64,000 bases of DNA from Bacteroidales bacterium (GTDB lineage: Bacteria > Bacteroidota > Bacteroidia > Bacteroidales > JAAAOM01): the NCBI GenBank assembly GCA_963665085.2, contig CAXXXS010000001.1, positions 609,155 to 673,154 on the forward strand. The letters are read 5' to 3'. Below the pieces are notes generated by a model. The model ran no database searches and was not told the DNA's origin. It saw nothing but the letters and a program-made list of their open reading frames with translations. Shown in pieces: positions 41,847 to 60,387 of this stretch. Position numbers and translations under genes: made by a program. Numbering within the stretch: position 1 is the stretch's first letter; each line of letters begins with the position of its first letter.

Positions 41847-42668
41847 ATGAACAATAATAAAATAGCTATTTTAGGCGGAGGAAACCTTGGATCCGCAATT
41901 GCAGAAGGACTAATTAGTTCTGATTACACTGAAGGTAAGAACATAACTGTAACAAGAAGAAAAATACATTTAATTGAATATCTTACAAAAAAAGGGGCAC
42001 ATGTTACAAATGATAATATAGCTGCCGTTAAATCCTCTAATATCATTATTCTTGCAGTAAAACCATACCAGGTACTTAACCTTGTATCTGAAATATCATC
42101 TGCATTATCTGATAAAAAACATATATTAGTATCTGTTGTTACAGGGATTTCTATCAGGGAAATAAACAAAATAGTACCTAATATTCCTGTATACAGAGCA
42201 ATGCCAAACACCGCAATTGCAATAAGAGAATCCATGACCTGTATTGCTTCAGGAAACGGACATGATAAAAAATTAGACATTGTTTGCAACATATTTGACC
42301 ATCTCGGAAAAACGGTAATAATTAATGAAGAACTTATGGGTGCTGCTACAGTAATAGGTGCTTGTGGAGTTGCCTTTGCATTACGTTTTATGAGAGCAAT
42401 GTCTCAGGGTGGTATTGAAATCGGTTTTAATTCAGAATTGTCACAATTTATTACAGCTCAGACCATTAAAGGTGCTACGCAACTAATCCTGGAAAGTGAA
42501 AATCATCCGGAAAAAGAAATTGATAAAGTTACTACCCCCCAGGGAATAACTATCTCAGGCCTGAATGAAATGGAACATCAAGGATTCAGTTCTGCAGTAA
42601 TAAAAGGACTTCTTCAATCATTCAAAAAATTAGAAGCAATTGAAGAGAAAAAGAATAATAAAAATTAA
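41847..42668 (+). CDS. proC: Pyrroline-5-carboxylate reductase
   Basis: 273 aa with an N-terminal Rossmann motif (IAILGGGNLGSAI), AVKP, RAMPNTA, and the C-terminal dimerisation-domain motif VTTPQGITI. Confidence 0.92.
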   Translation: MNNNKIAILGGGNLGSAIAEGLISSDYTEGKNITVTRRKIHLIEYLTKKGAHVTNDNIAAVKSSNIIILAVKPYQVLNLVSEISSALSDKKHILVSVVTGISIREINKIVPNIPVYRAMPNTAIAIRESMTCIASGNGHDKKLDIVCNIFDHLGKTVIINEELMGAATVIGACGVAFALRFMRAMSQGGIEIGFNSELSQFITAQTIKGATQLILESENHPEKEIDKVTTPQGITISGLNEMEHQGFSSAVIKGLLQSFKKLEAIEEKKNNKN

Positions 42669-45600
42669 TATTTAATTAATCTTATTGATTCTGAGTAACC
42701 AGTTTCTAATTCTGTAACCCTCAAAAAATATAATCCAGAAGGAATTTCATAACCAAACTGTAGCGTTGATTCAGTTTCTTCTAGGATAGAGGAATGAAGT
42801 ACATTACCAGAGATAGATATTAATTCCATCTTTAATTCACCACTTATTCCATTTCTAGCTATTAGAAGACTATTTTTAAACGGATTTGGATAGGCACTAA
42901 CTTTGTTTAGTTTAGCACTCTTATGGTTCCCAATTCCTACTGTTGGCTCTAATTTTTTATTAATCACTGCCTGTAAAACACTATTATCATCTTCATCCTG
43001 CAAGAACAAAGCAACTTTCATATTGTCTACATTCTCAACATTGTCAACATCCCAGGTATAGCTATCTGAATATTCTTCATCTTCATCCCAGTCAGATTGT
43101 AATAAAATACCTCCTGCATCTGGCAAAAACTTCCTGAATGTATTCATAAAAATGATATTCTCCCCATCTACTTCCAGTTCAACAGAATCTTCAAGAATTA
43201 CAATGTATAGATATAAATCCCTGTCATTTGTTGATTCTAACGATTTTACCGAATAATCAACGCCAAGGGTATTATCCTCAACAACTGTATTTAATTCTAA
43301 TTCAAAGTTTGATTCTTCAAGTGATTTTACAATAATATCATTGCTTGAGATATCACTTGTCCCGTATTCATAAATATCAGTCCCATCCAACAAAGACAAT
43401 GGCACTGTTGAAGAGCCATAATATAGAAGACGGGCATTTACTTCAAGTGGGTTTATTAAATTAAAAGGATCGCTCCCCGGAAAATCTGTGTGATATTGAA
43501 TATCTATCAGATCGTTAATATTCTCTAATCTAAGTGTATTTATGAGATTGTCTTCTGTTAAACTAAGATCATCATTTGTGTTGGTAAAATGCTCTAAAAG
43601 AACCACATGATTTCGTTCCTGAAACCAAATATTATCAAAGCTTACACCACCATTCTCGTTATTAGTACCATCAGAACCATATACAATTCTAAACTGAATA
43701 TTGGTTTTTCCAGCTAATTCGTCCAATCGATGTCTTACTTCTACCCACTTAGTATCCTTAATATTAGTCCAGCCTTCATCATGTCCGCCAGGGTTACCGT
43801 TTATCTGATATGAATTGTACCAATTAAGACCATCATCGACAGTACCAACTAGATTCCATGTTTTTCCATTATCCGTTGTATATTGCAGGTTTGCGCCGTC
43901 ACGAACTTCCTCAAAATCCCTCCAAATATCAAACTTAACAAAAGGTTTCTCTATATCTTCAAAATTAAAACATGGACTTTTTATCCAAGAGGATTCTTCT
44001 CCCGTATATTCAAGTTGTGTGTACCATGCTTTATTGTTTGTTGTCTTACTAAGGCTTTCTTCTGTTGAGCCAAATAACCAACTGTTATTATTTAAAGCTT
44101 TGCTAAATTCATTTTCCCAATATGTATTAGTCACTTCAAAGTCCTGGAAATAAGGGCCATCAGCAATTTTAAAAGTAGGTTTGAGCTGAATATTATCCTC
44201 AACAGTATCTACACATCCTTGCGTAGTTTTTGCTATCAATTTCACCAGGTATTCATCAAGAAGACTGAATTTATAGTATATACTATCTCCATAAAAATAT
44301 TCTGTCCCTACATCATCAGAAAAAATCCACTCATATTCAACTATATCGTAATTACTGGTAACTGTTTGCACAAAAAGAATTGAAGTATCTGGATCTAAAC
44401 ACTCAGAGGAAAAAGTAAAACTTGAAAGAGGGCTTTTCCCAAATTCAATATCTTTTGTAGCAGTAGCCACACAATTTTCACTAGTAGTTGCAGTAAGAGA
44501 TACAGTATAATCATCTGCTGTTTCGTACGTATGAGAAGGATTTTCTATAGTACTGGTATTCTGAGAACTTCCAAAATCATTAAAATTCCATAACCAAGCA
44601 GTTATTTCATCTTCCGACTCGGTTTGGTTAATAAACCTAATTGCTAATGGGGAATTTTCATTTACACATGTATCCTGTGTTGTGAAATAAATATGCGGTA
44701 TATCATTAACAACAACCGTTTCTATGGCTTTACTAATACATCCACTTGGCGCTTCATAACTAAATGTAAGATCATTAGTCCCAACACTAGCTTTTTTGGG
44801 ATTAAAATAGAAATTAATTGCGTCTGTAGTATCTGATTCGACACCTGTACCAGAAAACACACCGTCCAGTTCACTTCCATTTAATACAATTCGTGAATCA
44901 TTTCCACAAAATTCTGTTGTATTAAGTATAAAAAAGACCTCATCCACATATTCTATACTTATAATTCTTTCCAAAGCGTCATAAGAACTTCCGCTCCAAT
45001 AGGTATACGTAATTGTATAATCGCCAACTCCAAGGACCTGGGGATTGATAGTAGCACTGTTGTCTCCATGGTTTGTTAACCCAACACCTCCTGATATTGA
45101 AAAAGTACCTACCTGCTCATAAATATTAGCCCCTGTTATAATAAAAGGATCTTCATTCGAACAAAACACATCCCTATCATCAGGAAAAAATATATTCGCA
45201 ATCGAATCAATTATTGTAACCTCAGCTGTATCTGAATAAAAACAACCCGTAGTAGGATTTTCATAGCTGTAAATTATTTCGTATGGCGTTTCGCCATATT
45301 CAACTGCCAATTCAGGATAAAATATTGAAGTACTCGTTACAACACCATCTCCTTTAAATTCTCCTCCTGAAGGACTTGCCACTAGTTGAACAGGATTAGA
45401 GTTTATTGCATATGTTGAGCTCAGCCCAACAAACTGAATTTCAACATCAGGATAATTCGATACTGTTGCTGAACCGCTGGACGTTCCAATACAACCATTA
45501 TTATCTGTAAATTCTAATATTTCATATTCTCCAGGCTCTGTAACATGGAAAGAAAAAGGTGTTGTATTAATTCCTTCTATCGTCCCAGCAGATTCATCAT

Positions 45601-46360
45601 CAATCATATATTCCATATCATAAGGAGCAGAACCAGTAAATATTACACTCAACGGCGTTGATTCTTCTGCACATTTCTCATCTCCTCCCACTAAGTATGC
45701 AGTTGATTTATCATAATGCGATAATGTAAATGTTCCAACAGCTGTACCCGTACAGTTTTGATCACTAACAGTAAGAAGTGAATATGTTCCTTCCTGAGAA
45801 ATATTTAAATAATAGGGTGAAGATTGAATCTTAGAAACTGTTACGGCAGTTCCTCCATTATAACTGTATGTTATCTTCCATGGGGCGTTACCGTTAAGAT
45901 CTATCCTTGCATTGTACGAACTTTCTTCACAAATTGATCTATTGCCAGATATTATTGCTTCCGTTAATGGTGCAATGAGACTCGTTTTTATAGTATCTGT
46001 AGAATACGTTATTGGCCCATCATTATCAGAAGCCGCAATCAAATAGAACTCTCCTGTTTTGTCGAATTCTAAAATTGTATCTTGCTCATAAATATTATTA
46101 TAGATATTTGTAAAATCACCTTCTGAATTATTAACCTGGATTGTTACACTCCATGGAGCGGTCCCCGCCAGGGATAAATTAATTTCCACAACCTCTCCAT
46201 AACAAATAGCAGTCTCTCCAGTGATAACTGCTTGTTGAGCAAACACTGAATTAGAAGTCAATAAAAGGACTATAGTGACTCCAAGATATAATATCTTATT
46301 TGCTAACCCTCGTAAATATGCAAATGGCCAGAAATTATTATTTTTGTATTTATTATTCAC
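42665..46360 (-). CDS. Large T9SS-secreted surface protein: Ig-like repeats, two PKD domains, a MAM/LamG-like jelly-roll, an Omp28/thioredoxin-like region and a T9SS C-terminal domain
   Basis: 1231 aa with a signal/TM segment (ILYLGVTIVLLLTSNSVFAQQ). PKD-like segments are present (WLWNFNDFGSSQNTSTIENPSHTYETADDYTVSLTAT; YEWIFSDDVGTE...YLVKLIAKT). There is a jelly-roll-like region (WIKSPCFNF ... GANLQYTTDNGKTWNLVG ... IQFRIVYGSDG). The T9SS CTD reads AYPNPFKNSLLI ... GLYFLRVTE. It is the last gene of the six-gene operon. Confidence 0.8.
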   Translation of the reverse strand: MNNKYKNNNFWPFAYLRGLANKILYLGVTIVLLLTSNSVFAQQAVITGETAICYGEVVEINLSLAGTAPWSVTIQVNNSEGDFTNIYNNIYEQDTILEFDKTGEFYLIAASDNDGPITYSTDTIKTSLIAPLTEAIISGNRSICEESSYNARIDLNGNAPWKITYSYNGGTAVTVSKIQSSPYYLNISQEGTYSLLTVSDQNCTGTAVGTFTLSHYDKSTAYLVGGDEKCAEESTPLSVIFTGSAPYDMEYMIDDESAGTIEGINTTPFSFHVTEPGEYEILEFTDNNGCIGTSSGSATVSNYPDVEIQFVGLSSTYAINSNPVQLVASPSGGEFKGDGVVTSTSIFYPELAVEYGETPYEIIYSYENPTTGCFYSDTAEVTIIDSIANIFFPDDRDVFCSNEDPFIITGANIYEQVGTFSISGGVGLTNHGDNSATINPQVLGVGDYTITYTYWSGSSYDALERIISIEYVDEVFFILNTTEFCGNDSRIVLNGSELDGVFSGTGVESDTTDAINFYFNPKKASVGTNDLTFSYEAPSGCISKAIETVVVNDIPHIYFTTQDTCVNENSPLAIRFINQTESEDEITAWLWNFNDFGSSQNTSTIENPSHTYETADDYTVSLTATTSENCVATATKDIEFGKSPLSSFTFSSECLDPDTSILFVQTVTSNYDIVEYEWIFSDDVGTEYFYGDSIYYKFSLLDEYLVKLIAKTTQGCVDTVEDNIQLKPTFKIADGPYFQDFEVTNTYWENEFSKALNNNSWLFGSTEESLSKTTNNKAWYTQLEYTGEESSWIKSPCFNFEDIEKPFVKFDIWRDFEEVRDGANLQYTTDNGKTWNLVGTVDDGLNWYNSYQINGNPGGHDEGWTNIKDTKWVEVRHRLDELAGKTNIQFRIVYGSDGTNNENGGVSFDNIWFQERNHVVLLEHFTNTNDDLSLTEDNLINTLRLENINDLIDIQYHTDFPGSDPFNLINPLEVNARLLYYGSSTVPLSLLDGTDIYEYGTSDISSNDIIVKSLEESNFELELNTVVEDNTLGVDYSVKSLESTNDRDLYLYIVILEDSVELEVDGENIIFMNTFRKFLPDAGGILLQSDWDEDEEYSDSYTWDVDNVENVDNMKVALFLQDEDDNSVLQAVINKKLEPTVGIGNHKSAKLNKVSAYPNPFKNSLLIARNGISGELKMELISISGNVLHSSILEETESTLQFGYEIPSGLYFLRVTELETGYSESIRLIKY

Positions 46361-47534
46361 TTGAATTCAATTTTAATAGTGCGACATCGCTACTCTCATT
46401 TTCATTATAGCCTACAAGATATAGTTCTCCATCAATTACTAATGAATTATTTACTTGTAATAGAGATGCATTTGAACTGTTATTTGCACCCAATTCTTTT
46501 TTTGCTAAAAAGTCACCATCAAAATCATAATATAATATACAAATATTACCATTTTTCTGGCCTTTAGGAAACCTGTTTGATATTACTGCAAATCCTTTAT
46601 TCTGAAAAACAATATCAACAGGTACAATGTTTCTTGTATCTACAAAATCGGTTTCCCATTCAACACTCAAAAAATTATCCAGATCAACTCCATAAATCTT
46701 CAAACCGCTAACTTCATCATCTGAATTTTTTTCGTTTGCTGCAAAGATTATCGTATTATCATACTTTTTCAGACATAATCCTTCATTAATTTTCTCAGAA
46801 CCATACGATTTATAACCTGTCTGTTTACCTGTACCCTTGAGATTAACAAGCCATATAGATCGTTCTCTACTGGATGTAACATTATAACTCTCTGAATAAC
46901 CAATAAAATAGTATGAATCGTCTACTTCAATAATATTAGAAGCTATATCATCTGCATAACTTCCTCCATTAACGTATTGAGAAACAAGTTCCCCATCCAA
47001 ATTAATTTTCAAAAAATAGGTGTCTGTTAAATCTCCAGTGCTTGTAGTATTTCCCAGTACAACAATCTCATTCCCTAAAATAATAGCATCAGAAGCACTA
47101 ACGCTATTAAGATATTCTCCGTAATAATTGCTCCACTCGATTGAATTATTTTTTAACTTTCTAATAAGTATCCTTTCATTATACCCATCATCCATTACAC
47201 TTGAAACTATGTATAAATTATTCGCTTCATCACAAAGAAGTTTTTGCCCGTACTCATCTTCATCCAAATCATCGAGGATAAAAGGTTTATTAATAAACTC
47301 TCCTTGCTTGTTTAAAAAATATAAACAAGTACTTGCCCTGCTTGTATCTGTAACCTGAAAATTCGATAAGACACAAATATTATTATTATACTCACAAATA
47401 TCTACTCCAATATCGTTTTTACCTTCTCCAAAATATTTAACAAATGCAATATCTGATTGTGTTCCTTCATCAACACATCCCGTTATAAAACTAATAACAA
47501 CAAAAACCGCAAATATGATATTTCTATAATTCAT
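46353..47534 (-). CDS. Lipoprotein with repeated beta-propeller-like units
   Basis: 393 aa with the lipobox SFITGC. Repeated units are present (LYIVSSV..., YFIGYSE..., LYLVGYNENESSDVALLKLN). It overlaps the downstream gene by 8 nt and abuts the upstream gene with 0 nt between them. Confidence 0.6.
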   Translation of the reverse strand: MNYRNIIFAVFVVISFITGCVDEGTQSDIAFVKYFGEGKNDIGVDICEYNNNICVLSNFQVTDTSRASTCLYFLNKQGEFINKPFILDDLDEDEYGQKLLCDEANNLYIVSSVMDDGYNERILIRKLKNNSIEWSNYYGEYLNSVSASDAIILGNEIVVLGNTTSTGDLTDTYFLKINLDGELVSQYVNGGSYADDIASNIIEVDDSYYFIGYSESYNVTSSRERSIWLVNLKGTGKQTGYKSYGSEKINEGLCLKKYDNTIIFAANEKNSDDEVSGLKIYGVDLDNFLSVEWETDFVDTRNIVPVDIVFQNKGFAVISNRFPKGQKNGNICILYYDFDGDFLAKKELGANNSSNASLLQVNNSLVIDGELYLVGYNENESSDVALLKLNSSE

Positions 47535-48566
47535 CTATCTGATTTTTGCTGGTTTATAAAATGTGTATCTGTATCCGATATTAATGAATACATTGTGTAA
47601 AAGAAAGTTATCATCAATATAATAGTTATCTGACCATAAAAAGTCATTATACGTTAACCTATTCTTACTCTGATAAGCAAATCCAATTTTCGAATGAACA
47701 TCTAAAAAAACAGTCCCTTTAGAAATTGGATATGAATAATTAACTCCAACAAGAAGACTCGGTTCAAAAGATCTTCTATGAGATAATATTGATTCCTCTG
47801 AACCAGTATAAGATGTACCTGAGTAGTCACTCTTGGTTGGAGTTCCTTTTGCAGATGTAATAAATTCGAAATTTGCCCCCAGATAGAACTCGGGTGAAAC
47901 AGATAATTCTGGAACAAGGTCACTTAAATCGTAACTTGCAAAAAGGGGTATATTTATTCTTGTCTGTTTTTCTGCAAAATTTATCAAAGCAGTATTCTCA
48001 ATAGATTCTTCGAATTCAAAATTGCTTTGAGATAGTTCAAAACGAATATTTGCGTTCAAATTTTTAACATACTTACTTAAACTATAGGAGGCACCCGCCA
48101 TAAAAGAAAAGCCTGTCTTCCCAAGTTTAATCCCTGTTGAACCGGGTGTTGGTGAAGCTGAATATACTTTTCTAATGTGAATTACTGACTGATTCGCCCC
48201 TAATCCACCATAAAATGAATATATTGGTACTGCTTTGTAAGACTCAAATAGATAGATAAATTCGGCAGGATCATCAGTCCTGACCTCGTAATTAGGAAAT
48301 TCTTTGAAAAAATTTAAAATTGCTATTTCAGCATCTGCCTGGTTATCATCAAATAGATATGTTAATATCAATATTTTATACGCACTAATTTTTTCTTCCC
48401 TGGAAAATCCTTCATTAAGACAAGGGACAAGTAAACTGGGGATATCTTCAATAATTCCATCCTCAAAATTTTGTCTTGCCCTTCTTAGATTATCGGAGCA
48501 ATCATTTTGTGCAAAGTTCTCAACACAAAAAAAAACTAATATTATTGTAAATAATACCCTAATCAT
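47535..48566 (-). CDS. Outer-membrane beta-barrel protein with an N-terminal helical (TPR-like) domain
   Basis: 343 aa. It has a signal peptide (FFCVENFAQ) and a ~100-aa helical region. The C-terminal ~230 aa show an alternating beta-strand pattern and an aromatic terminal strand (FINIGYRYTFY), resembling the OMP_b-brl_2/PorT-like families. Confidence 0.65.
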   Translation of the reverse strand: MIRVLFTIILVFFCVENFAQNDCSDNLRRARQNFEDGIIEDIPSLLVPCLNEGFSREEKISAYKILILTYLFDDNQADAEIAILNFFKEFPNYEVRTDDPAEFIYLFESYKAVPIYSFYGGLGANQSVIHIRKVYSASPTPGSTGIKLGKTGFSFMAGASYSLSKYVKNLNANIRFELSQSNFEFEESIENTALINFAEKQTRINIPLFASYDLSDLVPELSVSPEFYLGANFEFITSAKGTPTKSDYSGTSYTGSEESILSHRRSFEPSLLVGVNYSYPISKGTVFLDVHSKIGFAYQSKNRLTYNDFLWSDNYYIDDNFLLHNVFINIGYRYTFYKPAKIR

Positions 48567-48576
48567 TAAAGCTTAA

Positions 48577-51500
48577 TTAATTACATGTTTTTTCATACGG
48601 AATATCATCACCAACATACGTATTCCATTCATTTTGAGAAAAGTTTCTCTCAATGTGTTTACACATTTTCTCTGCCATTACAGAGATAGAAGTTGGCCAA
48701 ACATATACGTTGTTACCATCACGGCTTGATGACACTAAATATTTACTATTCGGGCTAAATTCAACCGAAAACACCCATGAATCGTGACCTGTTAGGACTA
48801 TAGCTGGATCATTATCATCGGAAAGATTCCATAAAAGAATTGTTCCATCGCGACTTGATGACGCTAAAAATTGTCCATTCGGAGAAAAATCTACATCTTC
48901 AACCCTTGATTTATGTCCTTTTAAAGTTCTTATCACATTTCCCGAGAACGGATTAATAAGTTTTACATCTCCTGTTTTGTCGCCAAACGCCAAATACCTA
49001 CCACTTTTATTGAATTTCAAAGTATATATAGAATTACCTGGCTGTTCATAAAGTGTACTTGGAGCGCCATCGGACAGACTCCACAGGACAATTTTACCAT
49101 CCTCCGTACTTCCAACAACATATGAACTACTTGTTGGCCTGGTACAGATTGACAATATCCTAAGATCATTTTCTACGATGATCTTGCCTTTTAATGTTGA
49201 TAGGTCCCAACTAATAATCGATTTATCAGCTCCGGTACTAAATAATAATTGATTATTTGGAGCAAATGCCAGCGACCAAACCTGGCCTGTATGTCCAGAA
49301 AGTTCTTTTGGAGATGCGTTGATGTTAGTTAAATCAAACAGGTATATTTTTGTCCCAGCACTTACACCTAACCATTTCCCATCATTACTAACTACTGCGC
49401 TTCTATACAACTGATTGTCATCTACAATAATAGATTTTGATTTGGGATTTGAAATATTCCAACTAATTATTTTTCCATCATTCCCGGTTGAATAGAAAAC
49501 ATCTGATGAATTAGGGCTGAAAGTGATGGCCCTAACTGCACCTACATGTTCTTTAAAGCTCATAAAAGACTCTTCTTCTGAGGCTTTTAATGCACTCATC
49601 ATCCCATAATAAATATCTGTATTAAATTCTTTGCCATCAAATTTTTTATTTATTTTATATGCCTGGTATGCAAGAAGTGCTTTTAAATTTAAATTTTGAT
49701 TGATTTGCCTGGACTGAATTGCCATTGTATTTGCAATTCCAACCATCCTTTGGTTATATTCACGTTCTTTCTCCCGTTCCGCCTCTGAAACTTGATCTTT
49801 TGTTTTTTCCAATGTTTGCTCAACTTGCTCAACCTGTTTTGCAGCTTGATCAATAGCTTGTTCAGATTCCTGTTTTGCAATATTTGCACCTTGTATAGCA
49901 AGTTCCTTTTCAACAACAGATTTTTCTGAAATAGCATCTGCTATCTTTCGTTTCTCTGATTCTTCTTCTGCAAATGATTCTGCTATTAATTGAAGTTCTT
50001 GTGCCCTAAGTGCATTCTGTTGCGCAATTTCTCTTTGCTTATCAGCCTCTTGTCTTGCTTCTTCTGCAATCTCTCTTTGTTTTGTTGCATCTAAACGTTG
50101 AAAATTTGCATAAAATACAAGTCCAAGAAAAATAAATGATGCTACCCCAAGTACTGCGGCGAATCTCCGGGTCCTAATAAGGGTCCGCTTTTGTAAGCGG
50201 ATTTTTGTCCTTTCCTCAGATTCATATTTTTTCTCGCTGGTCTCAAGAAAAACCATAGTTCTTTCAAAGGCAGGATTGTAGCGTTTTGCCCAGGCAAGAT
50301 TTGGTTTATATTTCTGTCTCCAATTCTGGGCAAGCAATAGATCCGGAGGCCTCCATAAGCCAGACTTTCCTAATTGATATAACTCAGCTGCTTCCGATAA
50401 ACGAAGATACATCCTAACAGATTCTTGTTCCTCGTTAATCCATAATTTGAGTTTATCCCAATTTCGCATGATGCTTTCATGGGAAATATCAATAACCGTA
50501 TTTGGAGTAAGTTCTACTTCTATTGCAGGAGTTAAAAATGCCCTACCCTCCATTCTAAACTTATCAATTACTTCTATTGTATCTCTAACAGAAGCTTGTG
50601 CTACTTCTGCTATTAAAGATACTTTTGCGGGATGCCTGATTCCCCGGTTATCTTCTCCCCTCTCTGTAAGGGTAGTAAACATACTCCTACATATTCTTTT
50701 CCCATCGTCTGTTAACTCATTGTATGCTTCATCAGCATGAATCGATATCGCCCTATCAATTCTTCCAACAGTTTCATAATCAACATAGGATATTGCAGCA
50801 TCTTTATTGCCATATTTAGTCCAATGTTGATAGGTTCTCATTAATGCATGCTGAATTACTGATAACGAATCTATTTCATCCGTCACGTTATTCAACAATT
50901 CATATATTAACTGCTCTTCTATTTTATATCCCGCTACAGAAACAGGACCTGTTATTACTTTTCGATAATCTTCCCTAGACATCCTTGGGATCAAATAATT
51001 ACTTTGATTAATCCTTCTTGCAAGATCCGGGAATTGAGAACATTCGCCCAAAAAATCCGAGCGCATTGTTACAATAACATAGATGGGAAGTTCGGTTTGA
51101 GAGACAGCCTCGGTCAACAACTTGATAAATGTCTCGGTCTCATTAATCACATCGAAGTTACGCGTAACCTCCCTGAACCTGAATAATTCCTCAAATTGAT
51201 CGACAATCAATAATAAATTTTGTCCCTCCCTGAGTTTTAATTGTTTTACTACTTCAATTAAACCAAGTGTACTCCGTTTAAGCAATGATAAAATAACAGG
51301 TTTTGCTGCACTCCTATAGTCATTATCGTCCTTCCTGTTAAATGCCTTATAAATGGACTCAGCCATGTTTGAAATAGGGCTACTGCCAGGCCTAAAATGT
51401 ACTATTTTCCAATTAGCACCGGCCTCTTTAATAAATCCTCCATGCAACCCAGATATTACGCCACAATACACAAGGGAAGATTTACCTTCGCCTGAAGCAC

Positions 51501-51681
51501 CAGTTACTGCAGCAAATCTATATCTTGTCAGATTCCTGATAACTTCAGCACTCTGTCCTTCCCTGCCAAAAAACAAGTAATTATCCCCAATCGAAAAAGG
51601 CCTTAATCCAGGAAATGGATTATAGACACCTTTCACAGAGGTTTCTTGTTCTGTTTTTATGTCAATCTGAGCTTGACTCAT
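48577..51681 (-). CDS. STAND-type P-loop NTPase with a predicted TM helix, a long coiled coil and a C-terminal WD40 beta-propeller
   Basis: 1034 aa. The N-terminal motif is FPGLRPFSIGDNYLFFGRE. Walker A is GASGEGKSS (aa 61-69) and Walker B is LLLIVDQFEELF. The helical module contains DISHESIMRNWDKLKLWI. A basic stretch (KIRLQKRTLIRTRR) precedes the TM helix FAAVLGVASFIFLGLVFYANF (aa ~507-527, nt ~50101-50163). A ~115-aa charged coiled coil follows, then at least 6 WD40 repeats (e.g. GHTGQVWSLAFAPNN...SWDL; GHKSRVEDVDFSPNGQFLASSSRDGTILLWNL). Confidence 0.85.
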   Translation of the reverse strand: MSQAQIDIKTEQETSVKGVYNPFPGLRPFSIGDNYLFFGREGQSAEVIRNLTRYRFAAVTGASGEGKSSLVYCGVISGLHGGFIKEAGANWKIVHFRPGSSPISNMAESIYKAFNRKDDNDYRSAAKPVILSLLKRSTLGLIEVVKQLKLREGQNLLLIVDQFEELFRFREVTRNFDVINETETFIKLLTEAVSQTELPIYVIVTMRSDFLGECSQFPDLARRINQSNYLIPRMSREDYRKVITGPVSVAGYKIEEQLIYELLNNVTDEIDSLSVIQHALMRTYQHWTKYGNKDAAISYVDYETVGRIDRAISIHADEAYNELTDDGKRICRSMFTTLTERGEDNRGIRHPAKVSLIAEVAQASVRDTIEVIDKFRMEGRAFLTPAIEVELTPNTVIDISHESIMRNWDKLKLWINEEQESVRMYLRLSEAAELYQLGKSGLWRPPDLLLAQNWRQKYKPNLAWAKRYNPAFERTMVFLETSEKKYESEERTKIRLQKRTLIRTRRFAAVLGVASFIFLGLVFYANFQRLDATKQREIAEEARQEADKQREIAQQNALRAQELQLIAESFAEEESEKRKIADAISEKSVVEKELAIQGANIAKQESEQAIDQAAKQVEQVEQTLEKTKDQVSEAEREKEREYNQRMVGIANTMAIQSRQINQNLNLKALLAYQAYKINKKFDGKEFNTDIYYGMMSALKASEEESFMSFKEHVGAVRAITFSPNSSDVFYSTGNDGKIISWNISNPKSKSIIVDDNQLYRSAVVSNDGKWLGVSAGTKIYLFDLTNINASPKELSGHTGQVWSLAFAPNNQLLFSTGADKSIISWDLSTLKGKIIVENDLRILSICTRPTSSSYVVGSTEDGKIVLWSLSDGAPSTLYEQPGNSIYTLKFNKSGRYLAFGDKTGDVKLINPFSGNVIRTLKGHKSRVEDVDFSPNGQFLASSSRDGTILLWNLSDDNDPAIVLTGHDSWVFSVEFSPNSKYLVSSSRDGNNVYVWPTSISVMAEKMCKHIERNFSQNEWNTYVGDDIPYEKTCN

Positions 51682-53086
51682 TGGTATTTAATTCATTAAA
51701 AATAGGACTCAAAGATTTATCTAAAAGTTTGTCCTGATATATAATTTTTATAACGTCGCCAATATCTCTTTTAAATATCTTACTATAATCATCTTCTTCT
51801 AGCATTACTGCTTTAACCTTAAATTGTTTCTCCCGGCCATATCCCCAGACTTTCCTCAAATCATTTAATTTTGCGTCAAGCCATCCTTCAACACCATTAT
51901 AGATTATTATAACCCCATCACAATTACTCAAATTCTCGTAGTGTTCGTTGAGTACATTTTGAGCCTCATAATTCAGCTCTAATGTTTTTATTTTATTTTC
52001 TGATAACAAAGATTTTATTCTATCTGCCTTTTCTTCAGCAGTTTTATCATATACAAGATATATTGATTTTTCATCCACTACTTTAGTGTTAGACAATTTA
52101 ACACGGGCTGCAATCTTTTGAAAAATCATTTTTTTTAAGTCCTCAAGAGGAGCTTGAATTATCTCTGTTGATTCGTCTGTCTCTTCTCTTCGTATCCTTC
52201 GAAGATATAATTCCTGTCTTTGATCTGGAATTTTAAGATATGGTGGGATCCAAATTATACGTTGAAAACTTGCTTTTCCCCTGTTTGCTGCTATGAATTC
52301 TTTTACTTGCCTATTCTGAAAATCATTAAGAGAATATGCTGTACCTTTTATATAATCTCCATAAATTCCACCCATAATGTGAATACTGAGCTGAGATTTT
52401 TGACATATATCCAGGATCTCGTTCTTTAATTCATCTGATTGTCTTGGTAGAGAGGATTTCGGAAGCACATCAAATCCTCTTTGTCTTAACTCTCTAATAA
52501 TTTTGTCTCTATATATTTCCTGATCCGGACTGGTCTCTGCAACAAAAACCTTGATAAAGTTATTCTGAGCCTGTTCTGAGTCTTTGTCGACAAATTGATG
52601 AATATCATATACAAGGTCAATTAAGTTGTCCCAGATTACAGAGTTATCCGGGATTTTTTTTGAAAAATCAATAGCCTTAAAACTTTTAATGCCAATATTC
52701 CTTTCAAAGATATTGTACGATGAAAAAGTATTTAGCCACTCTAATTTTGAATCATAAAGGGGTTTTTGGACAATTAACCGAAGTTTTTCTTCGTGTTTCC
52801 CATCCTCAAGCATTTTTTTTAATAATTCCTCATAGGATTTATTTTTAATATATTCAGGAGATATTATTGCAAATAAGATATCAAATTCATCTTTAAAACT
52901 TAAAAAAGTCTCTTCTTTCTCTATCGGGCGAAAATCTTTTATAACTATTTCGATTTTATCTTCGAAGAGCTGACTATATATTTCCTGTGTTAGATTAACA
53001 AATTCAGAAATCCATATAATAGATTTATCTGGTATATCTTTTTTAGATACAGGATAAAATGTTAATATTTTTAATGTTTTTGGCAT
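51662..53086 (-). CDS. Protein of three tandem alpha/beta modules resembling TIR-like/DUF4062 domains
   Basis: 474 aa with no TM or signal sequence. Module 2 (KVFVAETSPDQEIYRDKIIRELRQRGFDVLP ... QLSIHIMGGIYGDYI) resembles the DUF4062 pattern. Modules 1 (ILTFYPVSKKD ... FDILFAIISPEYIKN) and 3 (IYLVYDKTAEEKADRIKSLL ... CDGVIIIYNGVEGW) resemble TIR-like folds. The assignment rests on motif resemblance only. It overlaps the NTPase gene by 20 nt. Confidence 0.5.
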   Translation of the reverse strand: MPKTLKILTFYPVSKKDIPDKSIIWISEFVNLTQEIYSQLFEDKIEIVIKDFRPIEKEETFLSFKDEFDILFAIISPEYIKNKSYEELLKKMLEDGKHEEKLRLIVQKPLYDSKLEWLNTFSSYNIFERNIGIKSFKAIDFSKKIPDNSVIWDNLIDLVYDIHQFVDKDSEQAQNNFIKVFVAETSPDQEIYRDKIIRELRQRGFDVLPKSSLPRQSDELKNEILDICQKSQLSIHIMGGIYGDYIKGTAYSLNDFQNRQVKEFIAANRGKASFQRIIWIPPYLKIPDQRQELYLRRIRREETDESTEIIQAPLEDLKKMIFQKIAARVKLSNTKVVDEKSIYLVYDKTAEEKADRIKSLLSENKIKTLELNYEAQNVLNEHYENLSNCDGVIIIYNGVEGWLDAKLNDLRKVWGYGREKQFKVKAVMLEEDDYSKIFKRDIGDVIKIIYQDKLLDKSLSPIFNELNTNESSSD

Positions 53087-53092
53087 AAGTTC

Positions 53093-56000
53093 TTAACTAG
53101 CTCTTCTTTTTTTTGATGCGTAAAAATCGTTCATTATTTTTTGAAAAACAATTTCTAACTCAGGAAAATCAAATATTTGCATATTGAGATCCTCTCTTGT
53201 GATAGTAATAATTGATGTCATCATTAACGTCTTTACATCAATTTCATCTATTTCCTTATCATGTAACAGTCCAAAATCAATCACACTGTTTTTATTTAAC
53301 CTTAGAATTTTTTTTCCTTTATGTTGTATTTCTACTTCGCCTTCAGCTACAAAAAGAATTGGATAAGTCCATGGGTTTCCTTTATATGTAATTATCCTGT
53401 TTGCTTCCATTGTATCTTCCGTAAGGTAGATTGAAAGTTCTGTAAGTATTGCAGGCCTTAAACTACCGATATGTTTCAATTTTTTAAGAAAATTAACTTT
53501 ATTAATGAGTAATCTTCTCTTAAAAGTTTTATAAAATTCTACTGAATTGTCAAGGAAGAGCCTTGTTTGCTGATCTAACCGTTCGAGCGTTTCGTAATAA
53601 AGATCCGGATCTTTATTAAAAACCAGGCATGCTGCTGTTTCTTGTAAAATTCTGGATTTATGAAACAAAAATGAAATAATTACATCATTTAATTGAAAAT
53701 CATCATTATCAATTAAACTATATAAAACTTCGGCCTTTGTCCAAATACTAATTTGGCCTAGCTCAGAAGTCAGAATCTGGTTAATTATTTCATCTTTTTC
53801 TACTTTTTCAAAAGGAAAAAATTGACTTAATGACTTCATCTTTTGAAGCATTGAAGAACTTTGGAAAGCAGGTATTAAAATTGATTTTATGTTGCTATCA
53901 ATTATATTATCAACTAATTCCAAGGCAAGATGGTTCGATGTTAAGTCTTCTTTTTCAATATAATCCCTCAATTTTGCAATAATGCTCCTGTTATGAATTA
54001 GGGAGAGCATCATGTATATCCTGTCAAAACTATTTTCTATATCATTTTTAAGTGATTCCTGTACTGTTTCAGAATATTCTGTTTTTGCTAATGATACCTG
54101 CAGGGTAAGATTTTGAGTGATTGAACTAACAATTTTAATAATAATATTAAGTATCTTATACTGTGATTTTTCGTTAGGCCTATATCCTGAATCTACTAAA
54201 CTGGATGTTGCTTGTCTTGATACTTCAGGAGAAGAAAAATCAATTTTAGAAATAAGCAACATTTTAGCCTTTTCACTATTAAAATCTCCAACTAACTTAA
54301 CTACTCGTTTAAGTAATTTATCGTCTATTTTAGGTTCAAAAAATAATTTTTCTAAATACTCAATGCATTTATCACCCACTCTAATTAAAACATCATAGGC
54401 ATAAGCATAATTCTCTGCTGATGCCAGCTGATCAATCATAATGGGAGTAAGCTCATTGGCATTAAAATTTGTTGATGCAATAAATGCTGCATTTCTAACA
54501 TTTGGATCATAATCTTTTAACAACAAGATAATCTGAGACATTAGTTTTTTATCCTGAATAGCTCCTATCATATTCGCTGCTAAAATCCGGTTATCAGAAT
54601 CTCTTGAATCGACTAGTTTATAAATATTTGTATAGTCGTTCGTAGTTTTTAATTGAGTAGCAAAAATATCGGAAAGCTTTTTAAATCTTGTTTTTAAATA
54701 CGCATCTTTCAGATTCTTTGTCTGTTTTTCTATCTGGTTCTGATATTGCAACATACTTAGTTTTTCTATCCTTTCTATTGCAAACTCTTTTATTACTTCT
54801 GGGCTATTTCCTAACAAGTAATATAAATTATTTCTAAAATCCGCAGGATAATTACTTTCAGCTAATTTTAATGTATAAAGCATTTTATCAGGATCGTCAA
54901 GCATATTAAGCTTATATAAACGCTGTTTTAATCCTATTACCTGATTTAAAAAATACTTTTTAGATTTTGCTAATTCATTTAAATGGGCCCTCAATAAAAT
55001 CTGAAATTTCTTTAGTAAAAGAAATAACGATACAATTGCAGCGATACATAGGAAGAAAATGACTATTGCCACTACTACTTCCCGGTTTGATGATAGTTTT
55101 GTTATGATGTATATGATTCCTCCAGATATTGCAAGAGAAACAAAATAAAAAGTCCCCCTAAAAAGTCTTCTTAACAAATCATAAGTAGGAATCTTATTAA
55201 TTCTTAATAAGATATTTAACGAAGGAGAGTAAACACTGTCGCGAAGAACATCATTCATTATTTTTAACAGAACAAAAAACAAAAACATGAGAGAATATTT
55301 ACTAATAAAAACATTCTCTTTTATTAAAAAATTTATCGCCAGTAATAATCCAACCAGGATTAAGATAACAACTGGAATCACAAAAATATTAAATGGAGAG
55401 TCGTAACTATTTAAAATTCTTTTAATAAGGATATACTTAAAAAATAATGAGAACATGGACAAAGTCCCCAAGAATAAACCTAAAAACTTAGCATATCCGA
55501 TACCTGATTCATAATTACCCTGAAGTAACGTATAAAACGAAAAATTTATATGAACAGTGATAAAAACAAGAAGCATACAGCTAATGATCATATAAATAAA
55601 ATATGGATATTTAAAAATCATTCTAAGACTTACACTTTCATATTTTCCAGCTATTAATCTTTGTTTTGCGCCATAGTTTGCCTTAGTTGTACTTCCAATA
55701 TTCATTTGTACAAACAAGATCACCAGCACTCCACCAAAAGCAAACAAAAGGAGCTCCCCAGAGTGGGGCCGTATTAATAAATAAACAATTATTAAAAATC
55801 CAACGGCTGCTACACCCAAATAGTAAAATGTATCAAGAAAAAACTTGTACCTCTTTGACTGGTCATTCGTAAAATACAGTCCTTGAATTCCTTGAGTTAA
55901 GTAAAAACTTAAATTATTAATCGGGATTGCAAAAATAACCCCAACATAAAAAATAACCGGAGTAAAGTAAAACAAAGATAATAAGCCTACTATTAGTAAA

Positions 56001-56305
56001 ACTATTAGAAGCAATAAATAGTAATAGAAACTATAAAACCTAACTTTGGTTTGTATTTTCAATCCTGCAAAAACAGGGAATAGAATAACCCCTGCTATAC
56101 CAGAAAAAACAAAAACTAATGGAAGCTCCCTTGCAGAATAATAATGTAAAAAATTTGAGAAGATATAAATATCAAACGCTCCAATAAAAACTCCTAAAAA
56201 AAAAGCTTGCAAAATAAACTTGGAAAGGAAAGACAGTTCATTAAAGTCAATGTTAAAATGACTAAAAAGGTAGTTCTTTATTTGGTTTCCCTTGAGCGAT
56301 TTCAA
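53093..56305 (-). CDS. Polytopic membrane protein (MFS/TLC nucleotide-transporter-like, ~12 TM) fused to HEAT repeats and a C-terminal degenerate cyclic-nucleotide-binding-like domain
   Basis: 1070 aa. About 12 hydrophobic helices occupy aa ~25-430. HEAT/PBS-lyase-like repeats are present (NRILAANMIGAIQDKKLMSQIILLLKDYDPNVRNAAFIAS). The last ~138 aa (nt ~53096-53510) have a CNB beta-roll pattern (RIITYKGNPWTYPILFVAEGEVEIQHKGKKILRLNKNSVIDFGLL). They lack the canonical FGE...R[ST]A phosphate-binding cassette. Confidence 0.7.
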   Translation of the reverse strand: MKSLKGNQIKNYLFSHFNIDFNELSFLSKFILQAFFLGVFIGAFDIYIFSNFLHYYSARELPLVFVFSGIAGVILFPVFAGLKIQTKVRFYSFYYYLLLLIVLLIVGLLSLFYFTPVIFYVGVIFAIPINNLSFYLTQGIQGLYFTNDQSKRYKFFLDTFYYLGVAAVGFLIIVYLLIRPHSGELLLFAFGGVLVILFVQMNIGSTTKANYGAKQRLIAGKYESVSLRMIFKYPYFIYMIISCMLLVFITVHINFSFYTLLQGNYESGIGYAKFLGLFLGTLSMFSLFFKYILIKRILNSYDSPFNIFVIPVVILILVGLLLAINFLIKENVFISKYSLMFLFFVLLKIMNDVLRDSVYSPSLNILLRINKIPTYDLLRRLFRGTFYFVSLAISGGIIYIITKLSSNREVVVAIVIFFLCIAAIVSLFLLLKKFQILLRAHLNELAKSKKYFLNQVIGLKQRLYKLNMLDDPDKMLYTLKLAESNYPADFRNNLYYLLGNSPEVIKEFAIERIEKLSMLQYQNQIEKQTKNLKDAYLKTRFKKLSDIFATQLKTTNDYTNIYKLVDSRDSDNRILAANMIGAIQDKKLMSQIILLLKDYDPNVRNAAFIASTNFNANELTPIMIDQLASAENYAYAYDVLIRVGDKCIEYLEKLFFEPKIDDKLLKRVVKLVGDFNSEKAKMLLISKIDFSSPEVSRQATSSLVDSGYRPNEKSQYKILNIIIKIVSSITQNLTLQVSLAKTEYSETVQESLKNDIENSFDRIYMMLSLIHNRSIIAKLRDYIEKEDLTSNHLALELVDNIIDSNIKSILIPAFQSSSMLQKMKSLSQFFPFEKVEKDEIINQILTSELGQISIWTKAEVLYSLIDNDDFQLNDVIISFLFHKSRILQETAACLVFNKDPDLYYETLERLDQQTRLFLDNSVEFYKTFKRRLLINKVNFLKKLKHIGSLRPAILTELSIYLTEDTMEANRIITYKGNPWTYPILFVAEGEVEIQHKGKKILRLNKNSVIDFGLLHDKEIDEIDVKTLMMTSIITITREDLNMQIFDFPELEIVFQKIMNDFYASKKRRAS

Positions 56306-56437
56306 TTTCGGTATAATTTATTTTATGACAAATATAAAAATTGTAAATACAAATTGAACTTTATCTTTTGATTTGCAAAAGTAGTTAATCGCAATTTAAA
56401 CAATTGTTTTTTTTTGATGTTACTGTCAAAAAAATAG

Positions 56438-57208
56438 ATGTTCGACCCTTTTAGAAAAGAATTTGGAAAATTTGAGGCACGCAGAGAGTTAGTTTTTCTA
56501 ATTCTATCTGGTTTATTTGTTGGCACACTCGCCATGCTCAATATTTTAGGAATAACACGGTTACTCGACCTATCGTTTACAATATTTAACAGAGAAATCC
56601 CTTTTAGGGTCTTTGTTGGAGTCCTGCCTTATCCGATTACATTTTTATGTACTGACCTAATTAGTGAATTCTATGGTAGAAAAAGAGCCTCTATTGTAGT
56701 TTGGGTTGGGCTTATACTTAATTTATGGGTAATTTTTATTTTATGGATTGGTGGAATACTACCACCAGTCCCAGAATTTAATCCTGAAAACGGATTACCC
56801 TACCCAGGTGATCCTAATCTATTATTTTTCGAGATAAGAAGATATACATTTAGTGCAACCTTTGCATCAATGATAGCATATCTAACAGCCCAGTTTGTTG
56901 ACGTACATATTTTTCATTTCTTAAAAAACCTGTCTAAAGGAAAAATGTTATGGTTACGAAATAATGGATCAACAATAACCAGTCAATTAATAGATTCTTT
57001 AGCTGTTGTTTTAATAACCTATTTTTTTACTCACGCAATAGTAATAAACGAGGGAGAAAGTGTTTCAAAAGTTTTATTCGTATTAATTATATCTAACTAC
57101 CTTTTTAAAATGTTTGCAGCCTTAATTGATACAATCCCATTCTATTTAGGAGTTAATTTTCTATCAAAATTTCTTGACATAGATCCTACAGAAGAATTCA
57201 AAAAATAA
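56438..57208 (+). CDS. yhhQ: Queuosine-precursor transporter family protein (YhhQ/DUF165, VUT family)
   Basis: 256 aa with ~6 TM helices and family-typical segments (YPITFLCTDLISEFYG, NNGSTITSQLIDS). Confidence 0.8.
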   Translation: MFDPFRKEFGKFEARRELVFLILSGLFVGTLAMLNILGITRLLDLSFTIFNREIPFRVFVGVLPYPITFLCTDLISEFYGRKRASIVVWVGLILNLWVIFILWIGGILPPVPEFNPENGLPYPGDPNLLFFEIRRYTFSATFASMIAYLTAQFVDVHIFHFLKNLSKGKMLWLRNNGSTITSQLIDSLAVVLITYFFTHAIVINEGESVSKVLFVLIISNYLFKMFAALIDTIPFYLGVNFLSKFLDIDPTEEFKK

Positions 57209-57210
57209 TT

Positions 57211-57729
57211 TTAACAATCCTTCTTACTTTTCTCCTTTAACAACATCAATAAATCATCTGCATTAAGATTAAACCCAGATATAATATGCTTTGATTGTTC
57301 GTAATAATTTTCTCTTTCCTTCAATTTAGATTTTATAAAATCTATAAGTTCCTCCGGGCTTTTTCCCTTTATAAGGGGCCTGTCTGTTTTTGAAGAATTA
57401 AGACGACTTGAAAGAACTTCTGGAGATATTTTAAGATAAATAGAATCTGAGAATTCATTAATAAGTTTCATATTGTCCCCGAAACAAGGTGCGCCGCCTC
57501 CTGTTGCTAAAACAAATTCTTTTCTTTTAAGTACATTCATTAATGTAGTTCGCTCGATCTCCCTGAATTGTGGTTCACCGTCTTCAGCAAAAATATCCGG
57601 AATTGATTTCCCTGTAGTATCTTCGATTTCAGCATCTAAATCAACAAAGGGATGTTCTAGCCTTGAAGCTAAACGCTTCCCCAGTGTTGTTTTACCTGAC
57701 CCCATAAATCCTACAAGAACTATCTTCAT
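57211..57729 (-). CDS. aroK: Shikimate kinase
   Basis: 172 aa with Walker A GFMGSGKTTLGK, FVDLD and LATGGGAP motifs. Confidence 0.92.
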   Translation of the reverse strand: MKIVLVGFMGSGKTTLGKRLASRLEHPFVDLDAEIEDTTGKSIPDIFAEDGEPQFREIERTTLMNVLKRKEFVLATGGGAPCFGDNMKLINEFSDSIYLKISPEVLSSRLNSSKTDRPLIKGKSPEELIDFIKSKLKERENYYEQSKHIISGFNLNADDLLMLLKEKSKKDC

Positions 57730-57739
57730 AGAATTATTT

Positions 57740-60334: not shown

Positions 60335-60387
60335 ATTAATTCTGTAACTTTCCCAGGTTTGTTATATATCAATTAACACATCTTGCA

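Follow-up and report, generated by a model that had tools for sequence, protein, structure and literature searches.

Proteins that join an NTT-like membrane domain, a long run of HEAT repeats and a cyclic-nucleotide-binding (CNB) domain are known as NTT-HEAT-cNBD fusions, a widespread and uncharacterised family for which it has been suggested that the cNBD tunes ATP uptake, and in which some NTT-HEAT forms are accompanied by a separate cNBD gene just downstream (Major et al. 2017, Genome Biol Evol, PMC5381601). The family itself is already known; it counts thousands of 50%-identity clusters and occurs also in cyanobacteria, chlamydiae and oomycetes. The present work concerns a very diverged member of it, gene A (53093..56305, minus strand), which lies in a stretch of 64,000 nucleotides from the genome of a Bacteroidales bacterium (GenBank assembly GCA_963665085.2, contig CAXXXS010000001.1, positions 609,155 to 673,154), the whole of which is hereafter called the window. 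Gene A opens a co-directional cluster, A to F, and is followed by gene B, encoding three tandem TIR-like domains, and gene C, encoding an nSTAND1 NTPase with WD40 propellers. The CNB-like domain of gene A has kept the CNB fold and lacks the phosphate-binding cassette (PBC) for cyclic nucleotides, and the state of this cassette tracks the gene neighbourhood: degenerate members are mostly linked to B or C, canonical members stand alone. The A-B-C linkage provides the first strong functional context for the NTT-HEAT-cNBD family and makes a very large family experimentally approachable, and the split between canonical stand-alone and degenerate STAND-linked members is directly testable. The published description of the family does not mention an nSTAND1/DUF4062 neighbourhood.

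Taken together, genes B and C hold the domain set of the DUF4062-STAND-WD40 proteins, namely TEP1, NWD1, NWD2, NPHP3, bacterial TEP1-like proteins, Swarozyc and Evangelion. According to 2026 preprints, DUF4062 domains can be TIR-like NADases and can act as defence proteins; in TEP1, NWD1, NWD2 and NPHP3 this domain is found beside a NACHT ATPase, in several of them with WD40 repeats, and TEP1 is the only one of these four for which hydrolysis of NAD+ or NADP+ is reported. In contrast to these proteins, the window divides the domains between two genes that are coupled in translation and has nSTAND1, not NACHT, as its NTPase; gene B has three TIR-like domains with Gln or Leu for the expected catalytic Glu; and the system is linked to an outer-membrane barrel and to a transporter-like protein of the membrane. 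Compared with a STAND switch in which a TIR-like adaptor stands N-terminal to the NTPase, the window has this module in trans, from gene B.

Two systems with signal-binding effectors come to mind as well. Pycsar effectors such as PycTIR (8jsk) have a CNB-type domain plus a membrane part, and the gene A family profile matches PycTIR; however, their CNB domain is fused to few transmembrane helices or to TIR, whereas gene A, with 12 transmembrane helices, a 470-aa HEAT region and then the CNB-like domain, is reversed in order and far larger. The window cluster also differs in having neither a PycC cyclase nor a PBC nor a PADLOC match, and in its conserved chromosomal context. Thoeris differs in that the window cluster is devoid of a SLOG or Macro signal-binding effector and in that synteny here is conserved and not sporadic. 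Pfam and NCBIfam scans of nine neighbouring proteins showed in the cluster neither a cyclase nor a SLOG or Macro domain nor any further component of a known signal system, and PADLOC returned no system match but only a weak match of A and a match of the WD40 region of C, both to one HEAT-ARM model. The cluster fits Pycsar or Thoeris in none of the defining features that could be tested. In the literature that we searched, with subscription journals outside the search, there was no description of this operon, of a STAND-linked degenerate-cassette branch or of the correlation between cassette and neighbourhood; the extreme divergence of the gene A protein and its apparently non-catalytic triple TIR-like partner are also new in that literature.

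Gene A within the NTT-HEAT-cNBD family

Gene A is a single open reading frame of 1070 aa with a TTG start, the interval 53093..56305 taking in the stop codon, as established from the list of open reading frames, the translation and full-length homologues. An in-frame stop lies five codons 5' of the TTG, and there is no alternative ATG or GTG start in frame. Homologues found by protein search are about 1050 aa long and align end to end; of 1.84 billion cluster representatives, 52,548 reached E<=1e-3 with a ten-sequence family profile and 4,736 reached E<=1e-30, and nearly all of the top 150 were full length. These full-length homologues and this large profile family show gene A to be a real gene. 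The pseudogene reading was also considered and was ruled out by the intact 1070-aa frame, the conserved length and the well-kept HEAT region and C-terminal helix. The closest full-length relative, at 44% identity, is encoded at locus L007 (loci are designated by such numbers) in an uncultured Bacteroidales metagenome-assembled genome; a genome-locus search with the gene A protein alone returned one locus, at 44% identity.

The sequence of gene A by itself betrays little of its ancestry. It gave no Pfam TLC, MFS or cNMP_binding match even at E<=10, HEAT_2 was the sole match in Pfam and NCBIfam scans of the protein and its parts, and a phmmer search against the PDB returned artificial HEAT proteins only. 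With no direct Pfam match, the domain assignments given here rest on the family alignment, on profiles and on the structure model. Among ten aligned sequences (gene A and nine homologues), HEAT_2 was matched in 7, cNMP_binding (PF00027) in 4 and MFS_1 in 4. A profile of 134 family members matched the nucleotide translocators AtNTT1 (2e-24) and CpNTT1 (7e-24) in the PDB over profile positions 99-442, then HEAT/alphaRep proteins, and then the CNB domains of the protein kinases PKG and PKA (E ~1e-29, positions 922-1049); its CNB part matched the Pycsar effector PycTIR at 3e-11. The orthologue at L014 carries the precomputed Pfam assignments TLC, HEAT_2 and cNMP_binding. Gene A shares with the family (Pfam TLC PF03219, TCDB 2.A.12-like) the three-part architecture and the length, and aligns with it end to end, but differs in having neither TLC nor cNMP_binding matches, no PBC, and replacements at 10 of 12 near-universal membrane-domain positions. 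It is a very diverged member of the NTT-HEAT-cNBD family.

Some family members are shorter. Those at L034, L037, L039-L041, L048, L049 and L079 end after the HEAT region (profile positions ~890-913), and neither B nor C is next to them; perhaps these correspond to the NTT-HEAT forms with a separate cNBD gene of Major et al.

The first-pass annotation of this DNA, a reading of the letters and of the translated frames, had described about twelve hydrophobic helices in the N-terminal part, a HEAT-like repeat region, a C-terminal CNB beta-roll without the cassette residues and membership in a TLC/MFS-HEAT-CNB fusion family, and it had called for a structural classification of the membrane domain. 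Each of these points is borne out by the profiles and the model, and the family in question is the one of Major et al. 2017. The membrane domain (aa ~20-455; 54941..56248, minus strand) is modelled by AlphaFold (mean predicted local distance difference test score, pLDDT, 78; predicted template-modelling score, pTM, 0.61) as a 6+6 set of 12 long helices within aa 21-453, with which the hydropathy peaks concur. Foldseek assigned this model to the MFS fold, with template-modelling (TM) scores of 0.66 for CpNTT1 (9j3n), 0.63-0.66 over AtNTT1 and CpNTT1 (PDB 9j3j-9j3o) and 0.70 for the MFS pump NorA. The family profile of the membrane domain singles out the NTT/TLC translocators, which are its only strong matches in the PDB (1e-24 and 4e-22), the next MFS protein following at 0.008. 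Thus classified as a distant NTT/TLC relative, the domain has in common with AtNTT1 and CpNTT1 the 12-helix MFS fold and, at the level of the family, the motifs FWG...(K/R)(K/R) and P..K....PLD...K/R; it differs in an identity of ~11-13%, and NTTs have no HEAT or CNB extension.

The conservation of this domain is peculiar in gene A. Among 126 family columns that are at least 75% conserved, the gene A protein equals the majority residue at 65. We scored 12 near-universal membrane-domain positions (F137, W138, R143, R148, K151, R152, G160, G302, K364, R374, Q378 and Y434), which are the most conserved polar positions of the family and are not equated with NTT substrate-binding residues. Gene A retains two of them (K151 and R152), the lowest count among 70 family members; four are retained in L007, five each in L013 and L015 and seven in L012, while the remaining 65 members keep 7-12 irrespective of their PBC state. 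The lost positions include ones aligned with conserved basic NTT residues, in the motifs FWG...KKFY and FDPCKEMAYIPLDEDTKVKGK, and most of the basic or aromatic positions shared with NTTs are replaced (R143L, R148D, K364N, R374T, Q378L). The membrane domain of gene A is thus highly derived, nearly all conserved polar transporter residues being gone. In most of the family, the strong conservation of these residues suggests real transport of an anionic, nucleotide-like substrate, and in the Bacteroidales lineage of the window the transport activity is probably altered or lost. The possibility, raised in the first-pass annotation, that the protein imports or exports a nucleotide is weakened for gene A itself by the loss of 10 of the 12 residues, the NTT-aligned basic ones included.

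The alpha-solenoid that follows (aa ~470-940; 53486..54898, minus strand) is all-helical in the model and made of HEAT-like repeats. Pfam places HEAT_2 at aa 564-631 (E=4.7e-10), AlphaRep/HEAT proteins of the PDB match aa 524-699, and the HEAT unit LLLKDYDPNVRNAAFIAS, already quoted in the first-pass annotation, is located at aa 594-611.

The C-terminal part (aa ~945-1068; 53102..53473, minus strand) is a CNB-like beta-roll with C-terminal helices, according to the AlphaFold model, Foldseek and the family profile. The model has eight beta-strands at aa 962-1035 followed by two helices at aa 1037-1069, and Foldseek matched CNB domains of HCN2, CNG channels and PKG, with Eag1 and hERG also among the matches; a non-CNB fold, which the first-pass annotation had named as the outcome that would overturn its reading, was thus not what the modelling produced. 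In the family alignment the PBC-equivalent loop is FGLLHDKEIDEIDVKT (aa 1011-1026; 53228..53275, minus strand), which under both alignment registers has no Glu after Gly and no Arg-Ser/Thr-Ala. The CNB-like domain of gene A has therefore to be described as one with the CNB fold kept and the cyclic-nucleotide cassette absent. This is no peculiarity of the window protein: a canonical G[ED]...R[ST]A cassette occurs in only ~4 of the 134 top family representatives, a fifth regular-expression match being unconvincing, and most of them keep hydrophobic-Gly-Glu/Asp and are devoid of the Arg, with 22 having neither. Because canonical cassettes are so few, cassette loss is, as far as these sequences go, typical of the branch to which gene A belongs.

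What has been preserved around the loop is informative. Identity between gene A and L007 is 54% in the HEAT region, 42% in the CNB-like domain and 34% in the membrane domain, and within the CNB-like domain the PBC loop has diverged while the C-terminal helix QIFDFPELEIVFQKIMNDFY (aa 1043-1062; 53120..53179, minus strand) is nearly identical in this 44% orthologue. A diverged loop with a conserved C-terminal helix and HEAT region fits a role in protein contacts better than a phosphate pocket for a small ligand. The division into canonical stand-alone and degenerate STAND-linked members, described below, suggests that the CNB domain has been repurposed from a cyclic-nucleotide sensor to a protein-coupling module.

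Such a fate of the CNB fold would have a parallel. KCNH/EAG/hERG channels possess CNB-homology domains that are not known to bind cyclic nucleotides and serve intramolecular or protein contacts. As in gene A, a CNB fold without phosphate-binding residues is placed there on a membrane protein; only the fold is in common, the partner being a transporter-like domain here and a channel there. The sperm Na+/H+ exchanger SLC9C1 (PDB 8pdv) is alike in joining a secondary-transporter domain to a long cytoplasmic extension that ends in a CNB domain, and it was the top Foldseek match by E-value of the full-length gene A model, with a global TM-score of only ~0.1. It has, however, another transporter fold and a canonical cassette that binds cAMP or cGMP, and the likeness is one of domain content, not of arrangement.

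Linkage of gene A to genes B and C

Homologues of A at only 22-25% identity keep the same partner genes. The gene order is A-B-C-D-E in L001 and parE-parC-aroK-A-B-C-D-E-F in L007; in L006 a HAMP kinase and a HAMP PP2C gene stand between A and B-C-D; L003 has A-C beside parE-parC-aroK, with B absent; and the contigs of L009 and L010 end inside C, with B absent in L010. Only the homologue with a canonical cassette (L008) has no such partners. A reverse search from orthologues of C found an A-type gene upstream in L012, L013, L014 and L015, and L016 begins inside the 3' end of A. In every Bacteroidota context first examined, from either direction, C adjoins A.

The relation between cassette and neighbourhood was assessed in a census, for which a metagenome scan seeded with canonical-cassette members added 80 further loci. 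With hidden Markov models of A, B, D and the NTPase portion of C, all 96 loci were classified and duplicates removed; a locus counted as informative when B or C turned up in it, or when one or both of its flanks were of sufficient length for a decision. None of the 12 informative loci with a canonical cassette had B or C nearby, against 26 of the 34 with a degenerate cassette (Fisher's exact test, p=3e-6, a statistic that ignores phylogeny); the association nonetheless has a clear direction. Full-length A proteins without a CNB domain gave 13 informative loci, 4 of them with B or C nearby. The first-pass annotation had placed gene A at the head of an operon, functionally linked to the TIR-like gene downstream; the co-directional arrangement, the DUF4062/TIR_2 matches in the next gene and the retention of this neighbourhood in 26 of 34 degenerate-cassette loci all agree with it. 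It had also foreseen that canonical homologues living mostly outside this context would point to a generic cAMP-regulated transporter; canonical members turned out to be a small minority and, in the census, unlinked.

The A-C linkage survives the gene orders A-B-C-D(-E), A-C, A-kinase/phosphatase-B-C and (B-)C-D-...-A. Because it persists through these different orders, gene neighbourhood gives strong evidence that A is functionally coupled to B and C, beyond what inherited synteny would leave. In the loci of alternative order (L050, L071-L076, L080, L082, L093 and L094) the nSTAND1-WD40 and barrel genes lie 1-6 kb upstream of A, with B before C in L082, and several A proteins of these loci stop before or within the CNB region. 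Histidine kinase genes with HAMP and/or HAMP-SpoIIE (PP2C) phosphatase genes are found between A and B in L006 (13129-17696) and L014 (6458-8491), and in L006 genes of CheA-like, response-regulator, SiaC-like and DUF6272 type come just upstream. Both the insertions and these upstream genes hint at a link to partner-switching or phospho-signalling.

In the window the successive gaps from A to F are 6, -20, 10, 0 and -8 nt. Gene B (51662..53086, minus strand) encodes 474 aa with three tandem TIR-like alpha/beta domains, the middle one being DUF4062, as judged from Pfam, AlphaFold and Foldseek. Pfam DUF4062 scores 27.5 bits against a cut-off of 24.7, beside a weaker TIR_2 match; the AlphaFold model (pLDDT 79.5) has the three domains in tandem, and Foldseek retrieves the TIR domains of C. 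elegans TIR-1, RPS4/RRS1 and RPP1, as well as the N-terminal multi-Rossmann part of Tm-1. In orthologues, the N- and C-terminal domains reach Pfam TIR_2/TIR and the middle one DUF4062, while the gene B profile gave nothing meaningful against the PDB. The start of gene C (48577..51681, minus strand) overlaps the end of gene B by 20 nt. Its product of 1034 aa is an nSTAND1 P-loop NTPase (Pfam E=2.4e-89) with an intact Walker A motif, GASGEGKS, at aa 61-68, followed by WD40 and other beta-propeller families at aa ~690-1030, which also match the Pfam TEP1 propeller model. The WD40 part is less conserved than the NTPase, yet not hypervariable. Relatives of C number more than 7,900, of uniform length (~1025-1055 aa) and named only 'WD40 repeat protein' or 'hypothetical'; across loci its identity is 36-64%, as compared with 22-44% for gene A. 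By these sequence measures, gene C behaves as an orthologous group.

The chromosomal setting is conserved in several distant genomes. Upstream of gene A are a divergent queuosine-precursor transporter gene and then the genes of shikimate kinase and of topoisomerase IV subunits A and B, all of them housekeeping. The cluster adjoins shikimate kinase and topoisomerase IV B/A in the window (56438-62232), in L003 (4908-9849) and in L007 (4604-9631); in L013 (125-4794) there are a subunit-B-like gene and shikimate kinase only, with an aspartyl-tRNA-synthetase-type gene (anticodon-binding, class II core) in between. These neighbours being shared although the A proteins are only 22-44% identical, the chromosomal position must be old. 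The conservation pattern of A-B-C-D suggests, at the level of sequence, a vertically inherited core function and not a mobile defence island.

A proposed split switch and its competitors

How, then, might these proteins work together? We tentatively propose, as a reading that may well be right but stops somewhat short of being probable, that gene A is the inner-membrane partner, and by preference the output, of a split TIR-like/STAND/WD40 switch to which it is coupled by protein contacts. The module would consist of A (NTT-like/HEAT/CNB-like, inner membrane), B (TIR-like), C (nSTAND1-WD40) and D (outer-membrane barrel), and B and C would work jointly as a split version of the switch whose domains are fused in TEP1/NWD-type proteins. 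The WD40 propellers of C would sense a cue and the NTPase would oligomerise; the TIR-like domains of B, probably non-catalytic, would be adaptors that dock on A at its HEAT solenoid and its CNB-like domain. Coupling of A to the switch would pass through protein-protein contacts and not through cAMP, cGMP or an NAD-derived second messenger, its CNB-like domain behaving in the manner of the CNB-homology domains of KCNH channels, which are ligand-free. Across most of the family, the switch would have as its output the regulated transport of an anionic substrate resembling a nucleotide; in the lineage of the window, A may be chiefly a scaffold or an anchor in the membrane. Our preference for A as the output comes from the order A-B-C, in which the effector-adaptor-NTPase-sensor succession of NLRs (nucleotide-binding, leucine-rich-repeat receptors) is mirrored, and from the sensor repeats that C has of its own. 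If true, a STAND switch controlling a transporter-derived membrane protein would be a new output for NLR-like systems and would open the way into a conserved operon, so far unexplored, of a major bacterial phylum.

The adaptor role proposed for B is drawn from its probable inactivity. In DUF4062 proteins the catalytic Glu (KpSwz E97, TEP1 E1008, Eva01 E87, the last with the Phe at F11) is ~76 residues after a conserved first-strand Phe (2026 preprints). In gene B, Phe181 plus 76 leads to residue 257, at the start of the predicted alphaC helix, within YSLNDFQN (aa 251-258; 52313-52336, minus strand), where DUF4062 NADases have their catalytic Glu-Tyr. Position 257 is Gln or Leu in 19 of 19 sequences and never Glu, the window having Gln257; the Pfam DUF4062 matches in B and its orthologues end just short of it (profile positions 68-76 of 82). 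His236, Gly239, Trp279 and others are invariant in the 19 sequences, and the pocket of B thus seems conserved but is probably non-catalytic. Because of the Gln or Leu at the expected catalytic position and of the variable Glu of the N-terminal TIR-like domain, which is replaced in several orthologues, B is from its sequence more likely an adaptor than an NAD-consuming enzyme.

Several points weigh against this proposal. The coupling of A with B and C is seen in gene neighbourhood, which shows functional coupling, not direction or mechanism. Four of the linked census loci had been fetched through C, and 8 degenerate-cassette loci with at least one adequate flank show neither B nor C. A degenerate PBC is no proof that a ligand is absent, as some other small molecule could bind, and the inter-domain geometry of the gene A model is uncertain at the pTM stated above. 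As regards B, the catalytic position was placed by spacing, motif and predicted secondary structure and not by residue-level alignment, the Asp/Glu conserved two residues before it (D255) might conceivably take its place, and a Glu is still present in the N-terminal TIR-like domain of the window's B (SYEELL). Lastly, what is otherwise described of nSTAND1 NTPases, which were defined in conflict systems, and of DUF4062 proteins concerns conflict and defence, and an immune or programmed-cell-death role is conceivable.

It is tempting to go further and to see in the cluster a Bacteroidota-wide, vertically inherited, envelope-associated NLR-like machine whose output is a nucleotide-transporter-derived protein, the HEAT/pseudo-CNB part gating the NTT-like domain; in this extended form we consider the idea unlikely. 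If it held, ATP or NAD+ would be released or admitted, or the membrane permeabilised, and depletion would proceed by export instead of hydrolysis, which is undescribed for STAND, TIR or cyclic-nucleotide systems. The lineage of the window would then be a derived form in which the transporter has turned into a pure scaffold or pore.

The direction of signalling might also be the reverse. Gene A could be the input, a transceptor that senses a periplasmic or membrane cue, such as substrate occupancy or the state of the membrane, and signals through its HEAT and CNB-like parts to the STAND NTPase, and from there to other targets, for instance D and E in the envelope, or kinases and PP2C phosphatases whose genes are inserted at some loci. 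Speaking for such an arrangement are the genes of HAMP-histidine kinase and HAMP-SpoIIE proteins that separate A from B in L006 and L014, the co-conservation of D and E, the loss of transport-type residues in the window lineage, which is compatible with a pure sensor, and the fact that A comes last in some lineages, which renders our argument from NLR order weak. On the other hand, the sensor of a STAND protein is normally its C-terminal repeats and C has its own WD40 propellers, nothing points to a downstream target, and the transporter residues strongly kept in most of the family suggest real transport. On balance we think it improbable, though worth keeping in mind beside the proposal of A as output.

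An anti-phage system of the Thoeris/Pycsar type, in which B would make an NAD-derived nucleotide, the CNB domain of A would bind it and A would open as a killing or arresting pore or transporter, was in substance what the first-pass annotation had put forward, and it does not fare well. A TIR-like/DUF4062 protein and a STAND NTPase do lie directly downstream of A, both from families with ties to conflict or NAD hydrolysis as stated above, the family CNB profile does match PycTIR, and the N-terminal TIR-like domain of the window's B does have a Glu at the usual place. But there is neither a PADLOC system match nor a cyclase nor a defence-island context, and the surroundings are conserved and housekeeping (parE-parC-aroK). 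C is orthologue-like, of uniform length and rich in relatives, and the cluster contains an outer-membrane barrel and a lipoprotein, absent from known Thoeris and Pycsar systems. A NAD-derived signal from B is unlikely, given the replaced DUF4062 Glu in all 19 sequences and an N-terminal Glu that is not conserved; nor is a divergent CNB pocket for a non-canonical nucleotide well supported by a PBC loop that diverges even between close orthologues, next to a nearly identical C-terminal helix. All in all, we regard this explanation as decidedly unlikely.

A connection with the cell surface was considered as well, the cluster being then a regulator of type IX secretion or of gliding-related surface proteins. 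Gene F (42665..46360, minus strand), which overlaps gene E by 8 nt, encodes 1231 aa with Ig-like/PKD/Omp28 domains and a type IX secretion C-terminal sorting domain (Por_Secre_tail; Pfam, NCBIfam), and it is kept after the cluster in the closest lineages only (L007 20061-23102, L015 11293-14970, L016 6814-10506). In L013 and L014 other cargo of this secretion system, cadherin/SprB-like and of ~2200 aa, stands at the place of gene F, with GldN nearby in L014. Against this, no such cargo follows the cluster in L001, L003 and L012, no gene of the secretion machinery lies inside it, and the association may be inherited synteny of one order, so that we attach very little probability to it.

That A is a plain regulated NTT-type nucleotide transporter with functionally unrelated neighbours, as would follow from Major et al. 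2017, who suggested a tuning of ATP uptake by the cNBD, from the homology to NTT translocators and from the stand-alone members with a canonical cAMP/cGMP-type cassette, is hardly credible for a protein without the cassette and without 10 of the 12 conserved membrane-domain residues, whose linkage to B and C is kept across distant lineages and several gene orders, with a 6-nt gap or overlaps.

The 5' region of gene A and the envelope genes

A match to the Bacteroidota -7 promoter motif (TAnnTTTG), TATATTTG, lies at 56329..56336 on the minus strand, 24-31 nt 5' of the TTG of gene A. The motif is not enriched across the window and this match is a positional hint only; scans for sigma-70 promoters and terminators stayed at background level and are uninformative for a Bacteroidota genome. 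Horizontal acquisition was considered and set aside: the slightly lower G+C content (0.29-0.30 against ~0.33) is no evidence for it, given the conserved synteny and the T-rich coding sequence of a membrane protein.

Gene D (47535..48566, minus strand) encodes 343 aa with a signal peptide, a helical N-terminal part and a predicted outer-membrane beta-barrel, as judged from its translation and its orthologues, which match Pfam OMP_b-brl_2; the gene is kept in the neighbourhood of the cluster. Gene E (46353..47534, minus strand) encodes a predicted lipoprotein of 393 aa, with a Cys ending the signal peptide and a weak match to beta-propeller repeats, and is the least conserved member of the cluster. 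A divergent Vut_1/queuosine-precursor transporter gene, like the one upstream of gene A in the window, is present also in L015.

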